Source of the DNA: Haloquadratum walsbyi C23
Lineage (GTDB): Archaea > Halobacteriota > Halobacteria > Halobacteriales > Haloferacaceae
Reading direction: 5' to 3'
DNA: 32,000 nucleotides
Assembly: GCF_000237865.1 (NCBI RefSeq)
Contig: NC_017459.1
Span: 2,730,001-2,762,000, forward strand
Within the stretch, counting starts at the first letter, position 1; each line of letters starts with the position of its first letter. Positions 3,130-28,549 of this stretch are shown here, one piece after another. The notes under the pieces are model-generated. The model did not search any database and was not told where the DNA came from. It saw only the letters and a list, made by a program, of their open reading frames with translations. The translations under genes and the position numbers were made by a program.

Positions 3130-3170
3130 GTGAACTCACCCCGAGGCAGTCGTCTTATACCGCCTGCACA
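3130..3170. repeat. short intergenic repeat S, copy 1 (GTGAACTCACCC...AGTCGTCTTATACCGCCTG)
   Basis: It shares GTGAACTCACCC and a 19-nt block AGTCGTCTTATACCGCCTG with 10541-10594. It lies about 96 nt downstream of the guaA-subunit-B stop codon. Confidence 0.6.
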
Positions 3171-8991: not shown

Positions 8992-9138
8992 ACCACTGAT
9001 ATACCATGGACCGAGTAAAAATCCCTGTATTTTATTTACTCATTGATAAAAATATCACGATTATTGTTATGAGTTTGGTGTCTACTCAGCAATCGGTTGT
9101 TTCGTTACGCTTTTTACCAGTGGAGCGAAGTTCAAATT

Positions 9139-9984
9139 ATGAGTGAGCGTGATAAATACCCAGCAGATTCCGGTCGTCGTCGATTCGTGAAGGGCGTTGT
9201 CGGTGGAGCGGCGCTCGCTGGCGTTGGCGCGACAGGGGCTGCCGCAGTTAATTCTGCAACAACATCGCCAGGTGCTGGTGGAGGGACGACGCAGGCGTAT
9301 GCAATTGAGAATACTGATGGTCCAGCACCTCGTGGGATGCCTCAAATTCCGATTGAAGTCGATTCTGAGGGATTTTTGAAAGGTGTTTGGCCTGAAATTA
9401 AAACAGAAAAACAGGGGGGGATTAGTATCCAGATTGCTGAGACTGACGACTTCAAAGGATCTGGTGTGACGTACTCAACAGAATGGTTCCAATACTGTGG
9501 TGTTGAATCCTATGCTGGTATTAACCCACAGTATGACTCTGATAATTACTTCCGTGTCGGTTCAAATCCTGGGTATGACTGGATGAGTGAGACTTACTCT
9601 GAAGGCGATAAGCTTCATGTTGATGATTTCACCGACTATGAGTCATGGTCCAACGGCATCGGCCGTGCCGGGCTTGGAAAGCCAGCGACTGGACGGTGGC
9701 GGTCTGAGGATGCTGAAAATATCATCCCGATTCAGGTAATTAAATCGAAAGAAATCGAGGAAGCCACTGGTCAGGATGCGTGGCTTGAAGCATCAACTGA
9801 TGAAGGATTTGTCGCTTGGCTGAATAAGTGTACACACTTTTGTTGTGTTCCACAATACAAAAGCGAGGGATCTGCGAAATTCAATGCTGAAAATGATGTC
9901 TACTGCCAGTGTCACCAATCTGTATATGATCCATTCAGCATTGTTCAGACACTTTTTGTTGCACGACCTCGACCACAGGAATAA
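9139..9984 (+). CDS. Tat-exported Rieske [2Fe-2S] protein
   Basis: Twin-arginine signal SGRRRFVKGVVGGAALAG. Cluster-binding boxes C-T-H-F-C-C and C-Q-C-H-Q-S lie near the C-terminus. The ATG at 9139 (MSERDKYP...) is preferred over the upstream track start. Confidence 0.85.
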   Translation: MSERDKYPADSGRRRFVKGVVGGAALAGVGATGAAAVNSATTSPGAGGGTTQAYAIENTDGPAPRGMPQIPIEVDSEGFLKGVWPEIKTEKQGGISIQIAETDDFKGSGVTYSTEWFQYCGVESYAGINPQYDSDNYFRVGSNPGYDWMSETYSEGDKLHVDDFTDYESWSNGIGRAGLGKPATGRWRSEDAENIIPIQVIKSKEIEEATGQDAWLEASTDEGFVAWLNKCTHFCCVPQYKSEGSAKFNAENDVYCQCHQSVYDPFSIVQTLFVARPRPQE

Positions 9985-10540: not shown

Positions 10541-10594
10541 GTGAACTCACCCAGGGTTCAAGTCCTGTGGTAGTCGTCTTATACCGCCTGTAAA
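10541..10594. repeat. short intergenic repeat S, copy 2 (with a 13-nt hairpin insertion)
   Basis: GTGAACTCACCC-aGGGTTCAAGTCCTGTGGt-AGTCGTCTTATACCGCCTG. It ends 2-5 nt from the TAG stop (10596-10598) of the Usp ORF. Confidence 0.6.
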
Positions 10595-10595
10595 C

Positions 10596-11276
10596 CTACT
10601 CCCGACCAGGGTCGAATACTGCAACGTCGGTCTCAATTTTACTGATACGTTCAAATGTTGGTGGTGAAATAAATCGAGATGCAACTGATCGGTCGCCACT
10701 TGACCCAAGAACAACGAGATTATAACTATCAGCGTTTGCTGAGATAAATTCCTCTACCGAGGAGCGCGCGACGCGCGTCTCAATATCTACATCTACAGTA
10801 ACAGTTTCAATTACTTGATCAAGTCGTGTCTCAGCACGGCGACGTTCGGTTTCATCTGAGATGCATGTTGTCACTGACACCATCCCTCCATTACCAGCGA
10901 GTCGTGTTGCAAAATCAATCATTCCATGTGCAGTATCTCCATCCCGAACGACAAGCACCAGTATCCGCTGCCAATTCATCACTGCTGTCTCTGATCGGAA
11001 CGATATTGTATCGACTGGCTGATTGAATATACCTTGGACATATGCCGAGAGATGACCATTATCCTCCTCATATGACGTGACAACAAGGTCACAATTAGCG
11101 GTTTCGACGTTCCGTGTGGTTGCTGATACTGGGTCGCCAGTTGCAACGACCATGTCGCAGGGAACGCCCACCTGCGTTTCAATCATTCTTACATATTGCT
11201 TTAGACAGTCGACTGTCTCAGCCGCCTGCTTTGTTTCAAATACGTCCTTTATATCACTCTGCTCGGTGTGCGCCAA
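10596..11276 (-). CDS. universal stress protein (UspA)-domain ORF; possibly the detached 3' part of the upstream HPP-Usp gene
   Basis: The C-terminal half is a complete Usp domain (ILVLVVRDGD...NLVVLGSSGDRSVASRF...DVAVF). The N-terminal part looks like only the second half of a Usp domain. The ORF begins at TTG, and the first in-frame ATGs are at codons 31 and 42. Confidence 0.6.
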   Translation of the reverse strand: MAHTEQSDIKDVFETKQAAETVDCLKQYVRMIETQVGVPCDMVVATGDPVSATTRNVETANCDLVVTSYEEDNGHLSAYVQGIFNQPVDTISFRSETAVMNWQRILVLVVRDGDTAHGMIDFATRLAGNGGMVSVTTCISDETERRRAETRLDQVIETVTVDVDIETRVARSSVEEFISANADSYNLVVLGSSGDRSVASRFISPPTFERISKIETDVAVFDPGRE

Positions 11277-11409: not shown

Positions 11410-12288
11410 CTACCGCTGAGCATTCTCCTGTTTACTTTGGTGCTGCATCTCAGTGCTATCGTTATTGATTGTTGCTGCGTCGGATCCCGAATCACCTCCT
11501 GAGACAATATCAAGAAGGACTACTTTCCCAGTTTCGTGTGCAGCAGCGAGTTGAGATCCAAAGAGTGCAGTTTGTTTATTATCATCTCCTCGCACTGGAA
11601 TGAGTACGTGATTGTCCGCTTGGACAGTTTCATAGAGATACTGCGCACGTTGTTCATAAAATTCGTTTCGCCAGATAACAAAAACTAGCGCAATGAGTAT
11701 CGATGCGAACATAATGCTCAGTACATATACAACTGGGTCAACCTCTCCTGTAATGAGCGTTAATAGCACTGTCGAAAACGCTGAGGGCGCTTCAATCCGC
11801 GCAAGCCACGTGATTATTCCGGTTAAGAAAATGGCGAGTGCAGCACTTTCTGGTCGTACGATCGCTCCACCACTTCCGTTTTGACATCCTCCCCGCGCTG
11901 AAGCGCGAGGCTTTCTCCTCGATTCTCCGTAAATGACTTGGGTAATGACTGCGGCAATCAACCCACACAACGCCCCAACGCTGAGACTACTAACAAATCG
12001 TACAGGGCTTGCATAACGACCTTCGGGGTCCGAAAATAACGTATAGGTCCCTGCAGCGAGTGGTGGAAATAATAAAAACGAGAGTATCGGTAACTGATTT
12101 GAGATATATGTTACAAATGCAATAAGAATCGGAATTAATAAAACAACTGATACATGGAGTAAATTATCAGTATACTGAAGCCACCGCTGAAGGGCGCTCA
12201 CTTCACGACGTCCGAATCGTCGAATCCGAGCATATACGATTGTCAGTTGCTTACGTGCACTTCTCATAAAATAGGCGATTGAGGGCAT
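11410..12288 (-). CDS. HPP-family-like integral membrane protein with a truncated C-terminal Usp domain
   Basis: Multi-TM protein containing LLFPPLAAGTYTLF...LSVGALCGL (HPP-like). The C-terminus VLIPVRGDDNKQTALFGSQLAAAHETGKVVLLDIV has the beta1-alpha1-beta2 pattern of a Usp domain, followed by TAG. The start is uncertain: ATG 12288, ATG 12267 or TTG 12339. Confidence 0.6.
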   Translation of the reverse strand: MPSIAYFMRSARKQLTIVYARIRRFGRREVSALQRWLQYTDNLLHVSVVLLIPILIAFVTYISNQLPILSFLLFPPLAAGTYTLFSDPEGRYASPVRFVSSLSVGALCGLIAAVITQVIYGESRRKPRASARGGCQNGSGGAIVRPESAALAIFLTGIITWLARIEAPSAFSTVLLTLITGEVDPVVYVLSIMFASILIALVFVIWRNEFYEQRAQYLYETVQADNHVLIPVRGDDNKQTALFGSQLAAAHETGKVVLLDIVSGGDSGSDAATINNDSTEMQHQSKQENAQR

Positions 12289-12345
12289 GATGAGAGAACG
12301 AAACCAGGGTTCACACGCTATTTTTATTCTTATTTTCAATACCGT

Positions 12346-13083: not shown

Positions 13084-13494
13084 ATACACTGACTCTCGCG
13101 TTGCAGTGAAAAACCACGTGATCCCTGTGGTTGCTTTCCTTCGTTGTTATTGGATATATATCCACACTGAGTGAAAATTGACATCCTCCCGCGTCTTGCA
13201 ATACTCCGTGAAGCATTTTGAACCATCGGTCCTACGCAACAGTATTAGCAGCTACTCTACGACAAGATTTTGAATTGAATTCTTCAATAAGTTTTTAGAA
13301 GCACTACGGGACTCCCACGGTACCGCACCGCTGAGTTGGGAATTTTAGCTGCAGGTTCATAGACTGCCAAGCCGACACATCGTGTGAATCGATGTGCAGT
13401 CAGACAAGGGACAGCCTCTTGAGAGTGCCACATCTTATCCCCTGGTACTCCTATCCTCAGCCGAGAACGCGTTCCTGTGTTAGTTTCCCCACAG

Positions 13495-14070
13495 GAGCGG
13501 TGGTCAGTGGTCGGCACTCGGATTCACCAGATTCAGAGTTACTTATCTTGATGATTGCTCGTCGCCTGTTATTTGATTCCCCGAAGGGCACATCCTGTGT
13601 CCAGTCTCGGTGGACACTCACACTCGAAGCACTAATTGTCGAGTATGCGGTTGCACTGGGATCGTAACCAGCGTGTCGACATATCAGTGCACGATATTGT
13701 AGAACAAGAAAGCTCGAAAATTTTCCCGTCCCCGTTCCCGTTTGACGGCGCGCATCCACATGTTAAACGCTGTCTTTTACCCATAAGTTCGTGGAGTCGT
13801 AACCGGACATTTCAGACGCTCTCAGAGATATTTTGAACGCAAAAAATCGAGGCGAGAAGCGATTCAGACAGTGATATCGGCTGTGGGGGTGACAGAACGC
13901 CGGTAATCAACGCCACTACAATTATTCCAAAGAGATGCTGGAACTGTAGATACCGAGAATTTCAGTCATGCTCGCCGATCCCGATCCCGTTCCGCTAAAA
14001 TCCTGACTCGAGTTGTGGGTAAGAGACAGATGTTAAACGGCATCGTATTGCGCCTGTTCAACTAATAATA
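13495..14070 (+). repeat. intergenic repeat family R, copy C1 (interrupted by a nested MITE; may extend left to about 13290)
   Basis: 13523-13628 aligns without gaps to the reverse complement of 23932-24037, with 95 of 106 positions identical. The shared blocks TGACGGCGCGCATCCAC (13743-13759) and ATTGCGCCTGTTCAAC (14047-14062) become contiguous once 13770-14039 is removed. 13444-13458 (GGTACTCCTATCCTC) matches copy R3. Confidence 0.8.
13770..14029. mobile_element. 260-bp MITE nested inside repeat copy C1, with IS4-family-like ends
   Basis: Terminal inverted repeats CTGTCTTTTACCCA (13770-13783) and TGGGTAAGAGACAG (14016-14029) match at 13 of 14 positions. A perfect 10-bp direct duplication ATGTTAAACG flanks it at 13760-13769 and 14030-14039. 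It contains no ORF. The sister copy at 23.8 kb has the uninterrupted site. Confidence 0.85.
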
Positions 14071-17895: not shown

Positions 17896-18487
17896 CTTAT
17901 TATATGCTGAGCAGGCGCAATACCACGGTCTTCAGGCCGTGGATACGCGCCGTCACGCCCTCCAAAGTCCTACTGTCGTCGCTTGATTCAAATTTAAAAA
18001 TACATACATTTAACTGACAGGCAATCACGCAATAAAACAGGAATCGGTTGGAAACAGAGCGATTCCCGCCAGTCCTACGATGGCGGCCTGTCCGCCCCAA
18101 GCAATAAGACAATCATCGGAACCAGTCTGGTGAACGGTCGGTTCCTATGATGAACCGATGCTGTGCCCGACTGCTTGAAAACACCACAGAAAGTAACTCC
18201 GAGTTTGCTAACGCCTGCCGGCGTCCCTGCGGCAAAAATAACGCTTGGACGCCGTATATGGTCGAGAATAGGAGTACCGGCGGCTTGGCACCGCCAGCAG
18301 TCCCACCCGCACCCGCCTCAGACCGCGAACAACCCTTCAGATTCGCACTGGCTGGTTGTTCGGTGGGAGCGTGAAACCTGACACTCCCAACGCTCGGGAT
18401 TCCTCCGCGTGAACCCGGAGGAGGATGTCAATGGGGTCCTTTGGCATCTTCCGGCGCCTAAATACGCCTTCGTGGATGCCCGGTCGG
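17896..18487 (-). repeat. intergenic repeat family R, copy R3 (longest copy; includes a GC-rich structured part at 18145-18487)
   Basis: Shares TGGATACGCGCCGTCA (17940-17955), the 38-nt end hairpin (17914-17951), CAATCATC...AGTCTGGTGAA (about 18108-18135) and GAGAATAGGAGTACC (18264-18278) with other copies. Two 60-nt lines counted by hand (18301-18360 and 18361-18420) have 37/60 and 39/60 G+C. Confidence 0.6.
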
Positions 18488-20239: not shown

Positions 20240-20528
20240 TAAACTAAATACTGGAGCGATGTGTTAAGATGCTTCGGTCGAATTAGTTCGCCGTCATCTC
20301 ATATACATTTATCACAGATTGATGACAAGACCTCTTCTTCAAGAAGTGAGTAAAACGAATGAGTAGGGAGGGAATACGACAGTCATAATATTAATTTTGT
20401 AGTCTGATATACAATTAGCTGTCTAACGTGGAAATCACTCAAATCATAACGTAGGCCGTAACATCATCCATTCTTGTCGTTTTGCCACTTCAGACAGGCA
20501 GTTCAAATTTCAAACAAACCGTTCGAGA

Positions 20529-20660
20529 GAGAGTGTCTAAAGCGGGTCGTGGACACCCCACAGCGAATAAGTCTCTCGGATCTTGAATCTGGTCAGAATC
20601 TGAAGGACCCCTTCCTGGAAGGCCTGCTGCGAGGAATCCGTCGCAGACGGCTGAGTAGGT
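20529..20660 (-). repeat. intergenic repeat family R, degenerate mosaic copy R4
   Basis: GAGTGTC...TGGACAC hairpin (20531-20556) and AATAAGT...GAATCTGGTCAGAAT (20566-20599) correspond to C1 13596-13609 and 13523-13545 in reverse. AAGGACCCC (20603-20611) and GAGGAATCC (20631-20639) match the opposite strand of R3 at 18433-18441 and 18397-18405. Confidence 0.45.
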
Positions 20661-20769
20661 CTGTTGTGAGGAGGTTCACATCATCACATACGATTCACGA
20701 ACTGTGCGAAAGGGATGCAATAAGGTTTGATCCCGATTGACAAGCACAGAAAGCTAAATTAATCGATAA

Positions 20770-21441
20770 TCACGAGGATATTTCATGAGAATCAAACCGA
20801 AGTGTGACTGCTTGATTTGACGCCTCTGCATCAGCATCCTGCTGCATTGCTGACGTATTATCTGCATTATTGCCCATGTTCCTCGTCTCCTGTTGTTTAT
20901 TCTCCGTATCTGTCATCTGGTGGGACGTATCAACAGCCGGCTGGAGTGTGGTAAACGCATCATGAAGCCGGTCGTACGTATCATCTAATGCTTCGACAAT
21001 GACCTTTGTACCGTTAATAATAGGCATCATATTTGTATCGCCACGCCAGCGTGGTACAAGGTGTGTATGCAGATGATCATCAATTGAACCACCTGCAGCG
21101 TCACCGCCAAGATTCTCTCCGGTATTGATACCATCTGGGTCAAACGCACTCTGAATCGCGTTGATTGTCGCCGTCTTTGTCCGCGCATGATCCAGTAACT
21201 CGGTATCGTTCAGTGCATCCCACGACCCAGTGTGGTGATCCGGTATTACCATTACATGCCCTGGATTATATGGATAATTATTCAAAAGAACAAAGCTGTG
21301 CTGACTTCGAGCAACAATCCGGCTTTCACGATCACGTGTTGGCTTACGAGCAGGAAGAACGCAGAATGGACACCCATCGATTGACTCTGTTTCGTCACGC
21401 TCAACCCACTCAATGCGCCAGGGAGCAAACACTTGCTCCAT
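20770..21441 (-). CDS. HIT-family nucleotide hydrolase/transferase (Ap4A-phosphorylase-like N-terminus) with a low-complexity C-terminal tail
   Basis: Histidine triad DDHLHTHLVPRW and an N-terminal FAPWRIEWV...CPFC motif. The last 60 or so aa are Q/N/D/T-rich. The ATG lies 3 nt after the map stop, so the two are probably co-transcribed. Confidence 0.85.
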   Translation of the reverse strand: MEQVFAPWRIEWVERDETESIDGCPFCVLPARKPTRDRESRIVARSQHSFVLLNNYPYNPGHVMVIPDHHTGSWDALNDTELLDHARTKTATINAIQSAFDPDGINTGENLGGDAAGGSIDDHLHTHLVPRWRGDTNMMPIINGTKVIVEALDDTYDRLHDAFTTLQPAVDTSHQMTDTENKQQETRNMGNNADNTSAMQQDADAEASNQAVTLRFDSHEISS

Positions 21442-23777: not shown

Positions 23778-24051
23778 TTATTGTTGAATAGGCGCAATCC
23801 AGCGCCGTTTACATCGTGGATGCGCGCCGTCAGACGAAGACGGGGAATTTCGAGCTTTTTTGATATCGTGTACTGATATGTTGACATGCTAGTTACGACC
23901 ACAGTGCAGTCGCATGCCGGAAGATCGATAATTCGTGTGTGAGTGTCCACCGAGACTGGATGCAGGGTGTACCCTTCGGAGAATCAAATAACAAGCGACG
24001 GGCAATCATCAACATAAGTAACTCCGAGTCTGGTGAAACCGGCTACCGCTC
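23778..24051 (-). repeat. intergenic repeat family R, copy C2 (compact and uninterrupted)
   Basis: Its reverse complement aligns to C1 throughout. The core 23932-24037 has 95 of 106 positions identical. The 38-nt end hairpin is at 23791-23828. The copy fills almost the whole spacer between two convergent genes. Confidence 0.85.
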
Positions 24052-27686: not shown

Positions 27687-27786
27687 CACTCCCACTCGAG
27701 AGCGACCATTGTTCGAGTCAGCGCCACAATCGTCCAATGGGGTGCACGACATATCGTCTAATAAATAGTGACGGCCGTATCCATAC
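27687..27786 (+). repeat. intergenic repeat family R, partial copy R5 (right-hand part only)
   Basis: CACTCCCACTCGAGAGC...ATTGTTCGAGT...GTGCACGACATAT...GTGACGGCCGTATCCA parallels C1's CACTCACACTCGAAGC...ATTGTCGAGT...GTGCACGATAT...TTGACGGCGCGCATCCA in the same order and orientation. Confidence 0.55.
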
Positions 27787-28437: not shown

Positions 28438-28549
28438 CCAACTTCGATAGAGATAGAAACAGAGACAAAAGTGAACTACCTCAGGGATAATTCCAGAGGC
28501 ACTCGCCTTGTCCCGTCTGTAGAGATAGCTGAATACGTCACTCTGGCAG

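Follow-up and report, generated by a model that had tools for sequence, protein, structure and literature searches.

Three repeat copies in a 32-kb stretch of the Haloquadratum walsbyi C23 genome as probable gene-less transposable elements of the HqIRS56 group

The DNA analysed here, termed the window, is a 32,000-nucleotide (nt) stretch of the Haloquadratum walsbyi C23 genome (contig NC_017459.1, positions 2,730,001 to 2,762,000); coordinates below are positions within it. A family profile search with nhmmer shows the window to have exactly three copies of a repeat family, termed A, B and C. These very probably belong to the HqIRS56 group of palindrome-associated transposable elements (PATEs), i.e. 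gene-less, non-autonomous elements of the IS200/IS605 family of insertion sequences (IS) that belong to its IS1341 (tnpB-only) branch. Of the three, C is intact and has moved recently. A has been immobilised, with a miniature inverted-repeat transposable element (MITE) inserted into the left hairpin and a small mobile repeat into the right one. B is a fragment of the left half, and old.

PATEs were defined in H. walsbyi, where there are 177–194 copies per genome and the HqIRS56-type group is the largest (Dyall-Smith et al. 2011, PMC3119063). The repeat family was noticed in a first-pass annotation made from the letters of the sequence and its open reading frames (ORFs). The family is real and its kind was read correctly there, yet it is already known: the mobile elements catalogued for H. 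walsbyi in 2011 account for the whole of the original finding. The window has a G+C content of ~47% and its gene content is housekeeping only.

Copy C and its parts are as follows.

17900..17903, plus strand: TTAT target motif 5′ of copy C; the empty-site junction, GTCTTATTAT joined to TGGGGTCC, is unambiguous.
17904..18431, plus strand: copy C, an intact HqIRS56 PATE of 528 nt (nhmmer E-value = 2e-84; published termini; empty-site alleles).
17914..17951, plus strand: left-end subterminal hairpin, GGCGC AATA CCACGG tcttcag GCCGTGG ATAC GCGCC (RNAalifold helices 1–2, two pairs with compensatory changes; pattern in at least 120 genome loci).
17999..18190, plus strand: PATE-specific middle domain, a TTTAA followed by covarying helices (nhmmer “mid” profile; helices 5–9 with compensatory changes).
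18191..18431, plus strand: omega-RNA-like scaffold and right end (sot0042 match; right-end covariance model, 72 bits; homology to the ends of tnpB elements).
18401..18422, plus strand: terminal hairpin TCCTCCGCG-TGAA-CCCGGAGGA, followed by GGATGTCAA, at the right end of copy C.

Metagenome contigs of hypersaline origin, 96%–99% identical to the window, were found by exact-protein look-ups of the neighbouring genes. In two of these, L121 (99.3% identical) and L174 (98.5%), position 17903 is joined directly to position 18432 and no base is duplicated. Thus copy C is an insertion polymorphism in natural populations, with unambiguous boundaries. Insertion was exactly after TTAT, with no target duplication and no terminal inverted repeats; the absence of both had been reported for the family at the outset, and it is borne out by the ends of the copies and by the precise empty sites of copy C.

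The family displays the other properties of PATEs as well. Its two ends, A/TnGYTGArCAGGCGC... and ...GGAGGATGTCAA, have no inverted match to one another. Palindromes are present near both termini (positions 17914–17951 and 18401–18422 in copy C) and show compensatory changes across 21 sequences. Insertion is beside a short targeting oligonucleotide, TTAT, and the target is not duplicated. The elements are 470–600 nt long, below the size of a transposase, and stop codons are present in all six frames of 18 members. This agrees with the original view of the family as non-coding, as does a middle region unlike TnpB. Both ends are the same as in 14 tnpB-bearing elements. Neither tnpA nor tnpB is encoded, and thus the copies do not belong among the autonomous or tnpB-bearing members of IS200/IS605. 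The proposal that they are non-autonomous IS200/IS605 derivatives (PATEs) is upheld by the ends, the TTAT target and the match to the published HqIRS56 termini.

Copies A and B are related to each other more closely than to copy C by their middle regions, and are composed as follows.

14065..14068, minus strand: TTAT motif, the presumed target-adjacent motif, directly 5′ of the left end of copy A (read from the sequence).
13178..14064, minus strand: copy A, a composite HqIRS56-type PATE with ~505 nt of PATE sequence and two nested insertions (nhmmer family profile, E-value = 1e-115; family alignments).
13770..14029, no strand assigned: nested 260-nt MITE in the left-end hairpin of copy A (repeat search; empty-site allele in contig L133).
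13523..13628, minus strand: 106-nt core of the first-pass annotation, a subfamily-specific middle region of the A/B-type PATE (95 of 106 positions identical to copy B; in 75 metagenome loci; absent from copy C).
13307..13545, minus strand: right half of copy A, resembling omega-RNA (sot0042) (hit of the nhmmer “omega” profile at 13542–13335, E-value = 2e-8; column-for-column agreement with the family).
13194..13306, no strand assigned: small mobile repeat of ~108–112 nt in the loop of the right-end hairpin of copy A, interrupting GGGAGTCCCG...CGCGGGAGGATGTCAA.
23782..24051, plus strand: copy B, a truncated A-type PATE that extends from the left end through the middle region to ~45 nt into the omega-like half (nhmmer profile positions 6–277, E-value = 2e-48).

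The alignment by which the family was first noticed was recomputed exactly: positions 13523–13628 (plus strand) and the reverse complement of 23932–24037 have 95 of 106 identities without gaps, the following 24 nt are weakly conserved (12/24), and a further 45 nt match at 39 positions. This match is far above background: the runner-up ungapped match of the 106-mer within the window has 46/106 identities. A repeat search gives the A–B pair arms of 186 nt with 82% identity, and blastn gives 79.5% over 259 nt (E-value = 7e-55). Beyond this region, indels followed by reconvergence had been described. The blocks of reconvergence, TGACGGCGCGCATCCAC and ATTGCGCCTrTTCAAC, are real and are also found at 17897–17955; the intervening stretch is the 260-nt MITE (13770–14029).

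Copy A had been drawn at 13495–14070, and its true span is 14064 to 13178. The element reads on the minus strand, with the left end at 14064 and the right end, GGATGTCAA, at 13186–13178. The boundaries were set by analogy with the empty site of copy C and by the positions of CAGGCGCAA and GGATGTCAA. The block shared between the copies is the left end of IS1341-type elements, and therefore the orientation of the family is the reverse of that first assigned (A reads on the minus strand, B and C on the plus strand). The 106-nt core lies between the left end and the omega-like half, just upstream of the omega module, and is not the omega scaffold itself. The mistakes of the first-pass annotation are thus anatomical, i.e. 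in orientation, extent and copy number, and in overlooking the two nested elements.

The nested element at 13770–14029 has terminal inverted repeats, CTGTCTTTTACCCATAA and CTGTCTCTTACCCACAA, which match at 15 of 17 positions and are Tn5/IS4-like, and it is flanked by a 10-bp target duplication, ATGTTAAACG, at 13760–13769 and 14030–14039. With these inverted repeats, a target duplication, no ORF and ends of a known transposon type, it has the properties of a MITE. Copy A as found in contig L133 lacks the MITE, and the 10-bp sequence is there just once. A diverged copy of the MITE is found in contig L197.

The small mobile repeat has four further copies (one in L136, two in L204, one in L196), each in the hairpin loop of a PATE or of an IS605-type end. 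Inverted repeats could not be seen in the window copy of this ~112-nt insert alone and became apparent after alignment of the five copies, which display imperfectly inverted ends, TAGTGCTCC...GGAGTRCTA. A size of ~110 bp, inverted ends unlike those of known transposons, the absence of a target duplication and the targeting of palindromes are the properties of small mobile repeats. This insert severs the right half of copy A from the terminal hairpin, and because the hairpin is broken the right-end covariance model gives only 14 bits for copy A. Nearly all MITEs and most ~110-bp small mobile repeats of H. walsbyi are located within PATEs or IS605-type elements (PMC3119063).

Copy B has no right end, and its homology to the family stops at ...GGCTACCGCTC. 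The same truncation is found in contigs L174, L191 and L201, and is thus old. Copies A and B do not display the >90% full-length identity of an HqIRS56-type element; they have only the ends and the right half in common with copy C, and the middle is unrelated. Both have the HqIRS56 ends and general layout and belong to the wider HqIRS56-type group (HqIRS56-70).

Five loci had been proposed for the 32 kb, of which just three are related. Among the suggested weaker copies, 17896–18487 corresponds to copy C; it has its ends and right half in common with A and B, but not the 106-nt core. The loci at 20529–20660 and 27687–27786 are unrelated: no relationship to the family and no repetition were found by blastn, by the family nhmmer profile (E ≤ 10), by the unfiltered right-end covariance model or in ~1.4 Mb of related loci.

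To count the A/B copies, the metagenome contigs were scanned for a degenerate motif derived from the 106-nt core and then with the family profile. This gave 75 stretches, including 43 complete elements of 460–600 nt at 35 or more distinct sites. TTATA precedes ~39 of the 43, none of them has tnpB, and nearly all end in GATGTCAA or a one-base variant of it; the right flanks are unrelated between copies. Related copies that include the core are also present in the genomes of Haloquadratum J07HQW1 and J07HQW2 and in one Halovenus genome. A blastn search of PLSDB plasmids with copy B gave no match.

Several A/B PATEs (e.g. those in L117, L099, L071 and L079) show short tandem expansions of GTGTGA/GTGTAA, of GGGGTTTGG and of CAACT pentamers, and these expansions account for most of the length variation (460–600 nt) among them. 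In contig L148 the left flank is that of the L197 PATE copy and the right flank that of the L173/L157 copy, which may represent either recombination between copies or an assembly chimera. Many contigs (L122–L126 and many end-block loci) stop within or at these elements, with matches at contig positions 2–105; PATEs and IS1341 ends evidently break short-read haloarchaeal assemblies.

The block at the 3′ end of the originally drawn repeat is, when read on the opposite strand, the left end of IS1341-type (tnpB-only) IS200/IS605 elements. A scan of one genome per species with the end pattern ACGGCGCGYATCCAC-N(8–30)-TTGCGCC yielded at least 120 loci, nearly all of them in Halobacteria and in many genera, with the extended consensus GTGACGGCGCGTATCCACGGCCTGAAGGCCGTGGTATTGCGCCTGTTCAGCnTATAA. 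Among the matches listed, the block is always followed by ...TATAA when read in the original orientation, and on the sense strand TTAT(A) precedes nearly all of the 120 listed loci. The same pattern gave no match in IMG/VR.

Many of these loci have an ORF of 420–470 amino acids (aa) on the opposite strand that starts ~90 nt inside the block. Two such ORFs have the Pfam domains OrfB_IS605 and Cas12f1-like_TNB, and are thus TnpB. Full-length relatives with the same ends, for which the first-pass annotation had proposed a search, are present in the form of tnpB-bearing elements. On the sense strand the order within an element is TTAT(A), the left hairpin (GGCGCAATACCACGG-loop-CCGTGGATACGCGCC), the middle region, and a right half, which has a module of ~240 nt homologous to the TnpB guide-RNA scaffold and terminates with GGGATTCCTCCGCnTTCAnGCGGAGGA GGATGTCAA. 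Among the matches listed, the lengths between the two ends are bimodal: 472–673 nt at 33 loci and 1457–1583 nt at 14 loci. The short and long forms have only the first 55–100 nt and the last ~165 nt in common. The middle regions were also considered as remnants of tnpB. A tblastn search with 26 ORFs adjacent to left ends, many of them TnpB-sized, gave only artefacts, which came from stop-to-stop ORFs extending over the element ends, and this reading was rejected.

The relationship to tnpB elements could be explained in another way, namely that the copies are decayed tnpB pseudogenes, formed by full-length IS1341 elements eroding separately at each locus, and that no distinct gene-less element has spread. 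Repeat-mediated core deletions which convert IS605-type elements to PATEs have been described (Dyall-Smith et al., PMC3119063). The homology of the left end and the right ~165 nt to tnpB elements would be expected on this account, and copy C can be aligned over ~260 nt with one of the tnpB elements, L098. However, the middle regions are unlike both the TnpB coding sequence and the 14 full-length elements, the ~515-nt form is colinear throughout in 12 or more genera, the 43 complete A/B copies are of similar size at different sites and include none with tnpB, and it is the short form itself that is cleanly present or absent at the site of copy C. Erosion locus by locus appears improbable, and a short form that spreads as such, i.e. 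a PATE, accounts better for these observations.

The right half of the elements shows similarities to omega-RNA, as the first-pass annotation had suggested with reserve. Positions 18191–18422 of copy C match the Rfam model sot0042 (RF02656) over its full length (positions 1–174 of 174) with 37.3 bits and an E-value of 5e-8 for the sub-region or 2e-6 for the whole window. The omega-like right half is homologous to the last ~165 nt of 14 out of 14 tnpB elements in a profile search, and the scaffold abuts the right end: the sot0042 match ends at 18422, 9 nt before the last base of the element (18431). In Rfam, sot0042 is a sense-overlapping transcript of IS1341-type transposase genes. Such sotRNAs correspond to what is now called TnpB omega-RNA.

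Both the PATE reading and the omega-RNA reading are already in print. A link between PATEs and sotRNA or omega-RNA was made in 2015 (Gomes-Filho et al. 2015, PMC4615843) and again in 2023 (Meers et al. 2023, bioRxiv 10.1101/2023.03.14.532601), the latter describing PATEs as carriers of omega-RNAs used in trans. A PATE-derived RNA, VNG_R0052, is expressed in Halobacterium salinarum (Gomes-Filho et al. 2015). HgcC-type RNAs are strongly expressed in H. walsbyi, a result that is not specific to the loci described here (Bolhuis et al. 2017, PMC5496347).

Copy C aligns over its full length, with 61%–71% identity, with elements of ~505–560 nt in at least 12 haloarchaeal genera, e.g. Halorubrum, Halobellus, Halosimplex, Halobacterium, Haloterrigena, Natrinema, Halarchaeum, Halovenus and Halorientalis. 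The “mid” nhmmer profile has 56 hits in the 120 listed haloarchaeal loci and none in the 14 tnpB elements; within the window it detects copy C only. The middle domain is found in ~45 loci of many genera (e.g. L102:6495–6678 and L007:6858–7044) and lies beside tnpB in none of the loci examined. A conserved TTTAA, which is TATA-like, is present ~25–30 nt upstream of the first conserved helix in this domain; that it is a promoter is inference only.

A structure was predicted with RNAalifold from a 21-sequence alignment. Standard pairs make up 96.6% of the cells, vs. 90.2% in shuffled alignments, and 32 pairs are changed on both sides, vs. 17.2 in shuffles (0 of 500 shuffles reached 32); partners slid out of register gave 5–11. 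Compensatory changes occur in the middle domain and the omega domain alike. Several invariant G-U pairs are compatible with the sense strand only.

Conserved secondary structure with covariation would also be expected of host non-coding RNA genes, e.g. small RNA regulators, that resemble transposon ends and whose copies arose by gene duplication rather than transposition. Consistent with this, the copies adjoin promoters of housekeeping genes, and overexpression of a PATE-derived RNA improved the growth of Halobacterium (PMC4615843). Against it are the presence/absence polymorphism with exact element boundaries, TTAT-specific insertion at dozens of unrelated sites, the non-syntenic positions of the copies, the numerous assemblies that break at these repeats, the toleration of decayed, truncated and invaded copies (A and B), and ends in common with bona fide IS elements. 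A host RNA gene family is thus a still less probable explanation than eroded tnpB elements. Least probable, and barely credible, is that the copies are structural repeats of the REP (repetitive extragenic palindrome)/REPIN kind, which the host would keep as terminators, as recombination sites or as sites for nucleoid proteins, or which a RAYT-like enzyme, and not the TnpA of IS200/IS605, would spread. In favour of this, there are hairpins close to the two ends, the copies are intergenic and a REPIN parallel has been drawn by Gomes-Filho et al. (PMC4615843), but elements of 470–600 nt are not short paired hairpins, they are oriented and have a left end distinct from the right one, they are colinear with tnpB elements and the omega-like module is kept.

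Several observations weigh against the interpretation of the copies as PATEs with an omega-RNA-like module. The sot0042 score of copy C (37.3) does not reach the curated gathering score of 88; the shortfall is mostly due to two expansions, copy C having 60 nt and 54 nt where the sot0042 model has 16 and 32 nt. Rfam gave no match for the whole window at gathering thresholds, and none for the copy A region at E ≤ 10. Copies A and B cannot form a complete omega scaffold. No tnpA or tnpB is present in the copies or elsewhere in the 32-kb window; in strain C23 all IS200-type tnpA genes are reported to be disrupted, and in HBSQ001 all but one, and strain-specific insertions are found nonetheless (PMC3119063). 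The structure was predicted from the same alignment that was used to score covariation, and the covariation could have its source in a single DNA strand that folds during transposition, and not in an RNA.

Going by what is known of IS200/IS605 elements, a Y1 transposase (TnpA) supplied in trans would move the elements as single strands. The sense strand may be transcribed into an omega-like RNA whose guide would be the DNA just to the right of GGATGTCAA. With such an RNA, the empty site (TTAT and the right flank) could be cleaved by a TnpB from a gene elsewhere, and the element would thereby be more likely to be retained. The target so specified for copy C, TTAT and TGGGGTCCTTTGGCATC, would be precisely the empty allele found in L121 and L174.

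A conservation of the copy C type over its full length across haloarchaeal genera, together with a covarying middle domain, was not found described, and it is offered as a lead, not a result. A tentative possibility, which we would not put at even odds, is that the 515-nt PATE is a self-contained, guide-RNA-only mobile gene. It would have its own TATA-like box and encode a structured RNA of ~390 nt, with an omega scaffold as the 3′ half and a 5′ PATE-specific domain of ~150 nt kept by compensatory substitutions, and it would parasitise TnpA for moving and TnpB for retention. The extra 5′ domain might tune TnpB loading or compete for it. If this were so, the 515-nt form would be a natural stand-alone TnpB guide-RNA gene and would bear on the separation of guide RNA and nuclease toward CRISPR-type systems.

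Irrespective of that possibility, the three copies are a worked example of H. walsbyi spacers that are full of PATEs, which are themselves invaded by MITEs and small mobile repeats. For annotation, they show that long “empty” spacers and some spurious ORFs of this genome are mobile-element debris.

Other small elements are found in the window. One of these lies in a coding region:

11881..11928, minus strand: 48-nt terminal-only mini-PATE (GGAGAATCGAGGAGAAAGCCTCGCGCTTCAGCGCGGGGAGGATGTCAA) with fused ends like those of ISHwa24/HqIRS54, after TTAC in a coding region; absent in contigs L127, L128, L131 and L133.

This mini-PATE gives an HgcC-like Rfam hit below the gathering threshold (RF00062, E-value = 0.08) and 25.6 bits with the right-end covariance model (E-value = 1e-4). 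Other copies are present in L204, L184 and L168; the ends were compared with those in Table S9. The gene concerned (ORFs 11410–12339 and 10596–11276) is one 548-aa HPP + Usp membrane protein in most of the metagenome contigs. The 48-nt insert is a multiple of 3, and, besides carrying the insert, the window gene is broken into two ORFs that lie in different frames.

Three elements of 36–49 nt, all on the minus strand (3130–3170, 10541–10595 and 28471–28520), have AGGCGGTATAAGACGAC... in common and end in G(A/T)GTTCAC. The last of them follows TCTAC, like an HqIRS46-type PATE. In appearance they are terminal-only PATEs that belong to another group of IS605-type ends.

The spacer at 20240–20770 (530 nt, between two minus-strand genes) has no match to an ORF family, a repeat or an RNA family. 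It is 97.7% conserved in contig L174, and a hairpin-rich stretch within it closes with GGTTCAC (20673–20679). This sequence resembles the termini of other IS605 groups, but at 7 nt only it was not counted as a terminus. An ORF at 9097–9984 (plus strand) encodes 295 aa without a Pfam match; by eye, its N-terminus, SGRRRFVKGVVGGAALAGVGATGAAA, resembles a twin-arginine signal peptide.

Among known elements, copy C is closest to HqIRS56. Its 5′ end, TTATA TGCTGAGCAGGCGCAATACCACG.TCTTCAGGCCGTGGATACGCGCCGTCA, and its 3′ end, ...GCTCGGGATTCCTCCGCGTGAACCCGGAGGAGGATGTCAA, are as published (Table S9, PMC3119063), with one mismatch at each terminus and no substantive difference. The length of copy C, 528 + 4 nt, is at the lower bound of the published 532–574 bp, and HqIRS56 is likewise without inverted terminal repeats and without target duplication.

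The haloarchaeal IS1341-type elements (ISHwa21 and the ISNph series) have the same left hairpin, TTAT(A) target, right hairpin, terminal GGATGTCAA and last ~165 nt. The PATEs differ from them in the absence of a tnpB ORF: ~1 kb is replaced by a non-coding middle of 190–250 nt that is unrelated to tnpB. The sot0042 RNA has a UUCA-type terminal hairpin in common with the right half of copy C. VNG_R0052 of H. salinarum is 99 nt long with fused ends, whereas the HqIRS56-type elements here are ~500 nt.

The elements nested in copy A can also be related to catalogued ones. By its listed features, the MITE agrees with HqIRS35 (Table S8: 241–266 bp, inverted terminal repeat 16/19, target duplication 10, parent ISHwa2) in size, terminal inverted repeats and target duplication. 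A 260-nt HqIRS35 insertion is listed for HBSQ001 at 32662–32921 (Table S5); the offset implied by equating the two would place an HqIRS46 at window positions ~9100–9450, where there is none. The insert in the right-end hairpin, as judged from published descriptions, behaves like the ~110-bp small mobile repeats HqIRS42/43/55, which target near-terminal palindromes (PMC3119063). Copy A thus repeats the pattern of Dyall-Smith et al., in which near-terminal palindromes are struck by a MITE and a small mobile repeat.

Outside the archaea, the PATE-like elements of Geobacillus stearothermophilus (ISGst1/5-related, Meers et al. 2023) are also gene-less, have IS200/IS605 ends and often encode omega-RNAs for TnpB in trans. 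These are bacterial and unrelated in sequence, and their TnpA and TnpB activities have been demonstrated by experiment. The RAYT-mobilised REP/REPIN elements are likewise non-autonomous, hairpin-bearing and derived from IS200/IS605. REPINs, however, are short, consist of hairpins in inverted pairs and have a domesticated enzyme of their own, in contrast to the long, oriented elements with distinct ends described here.

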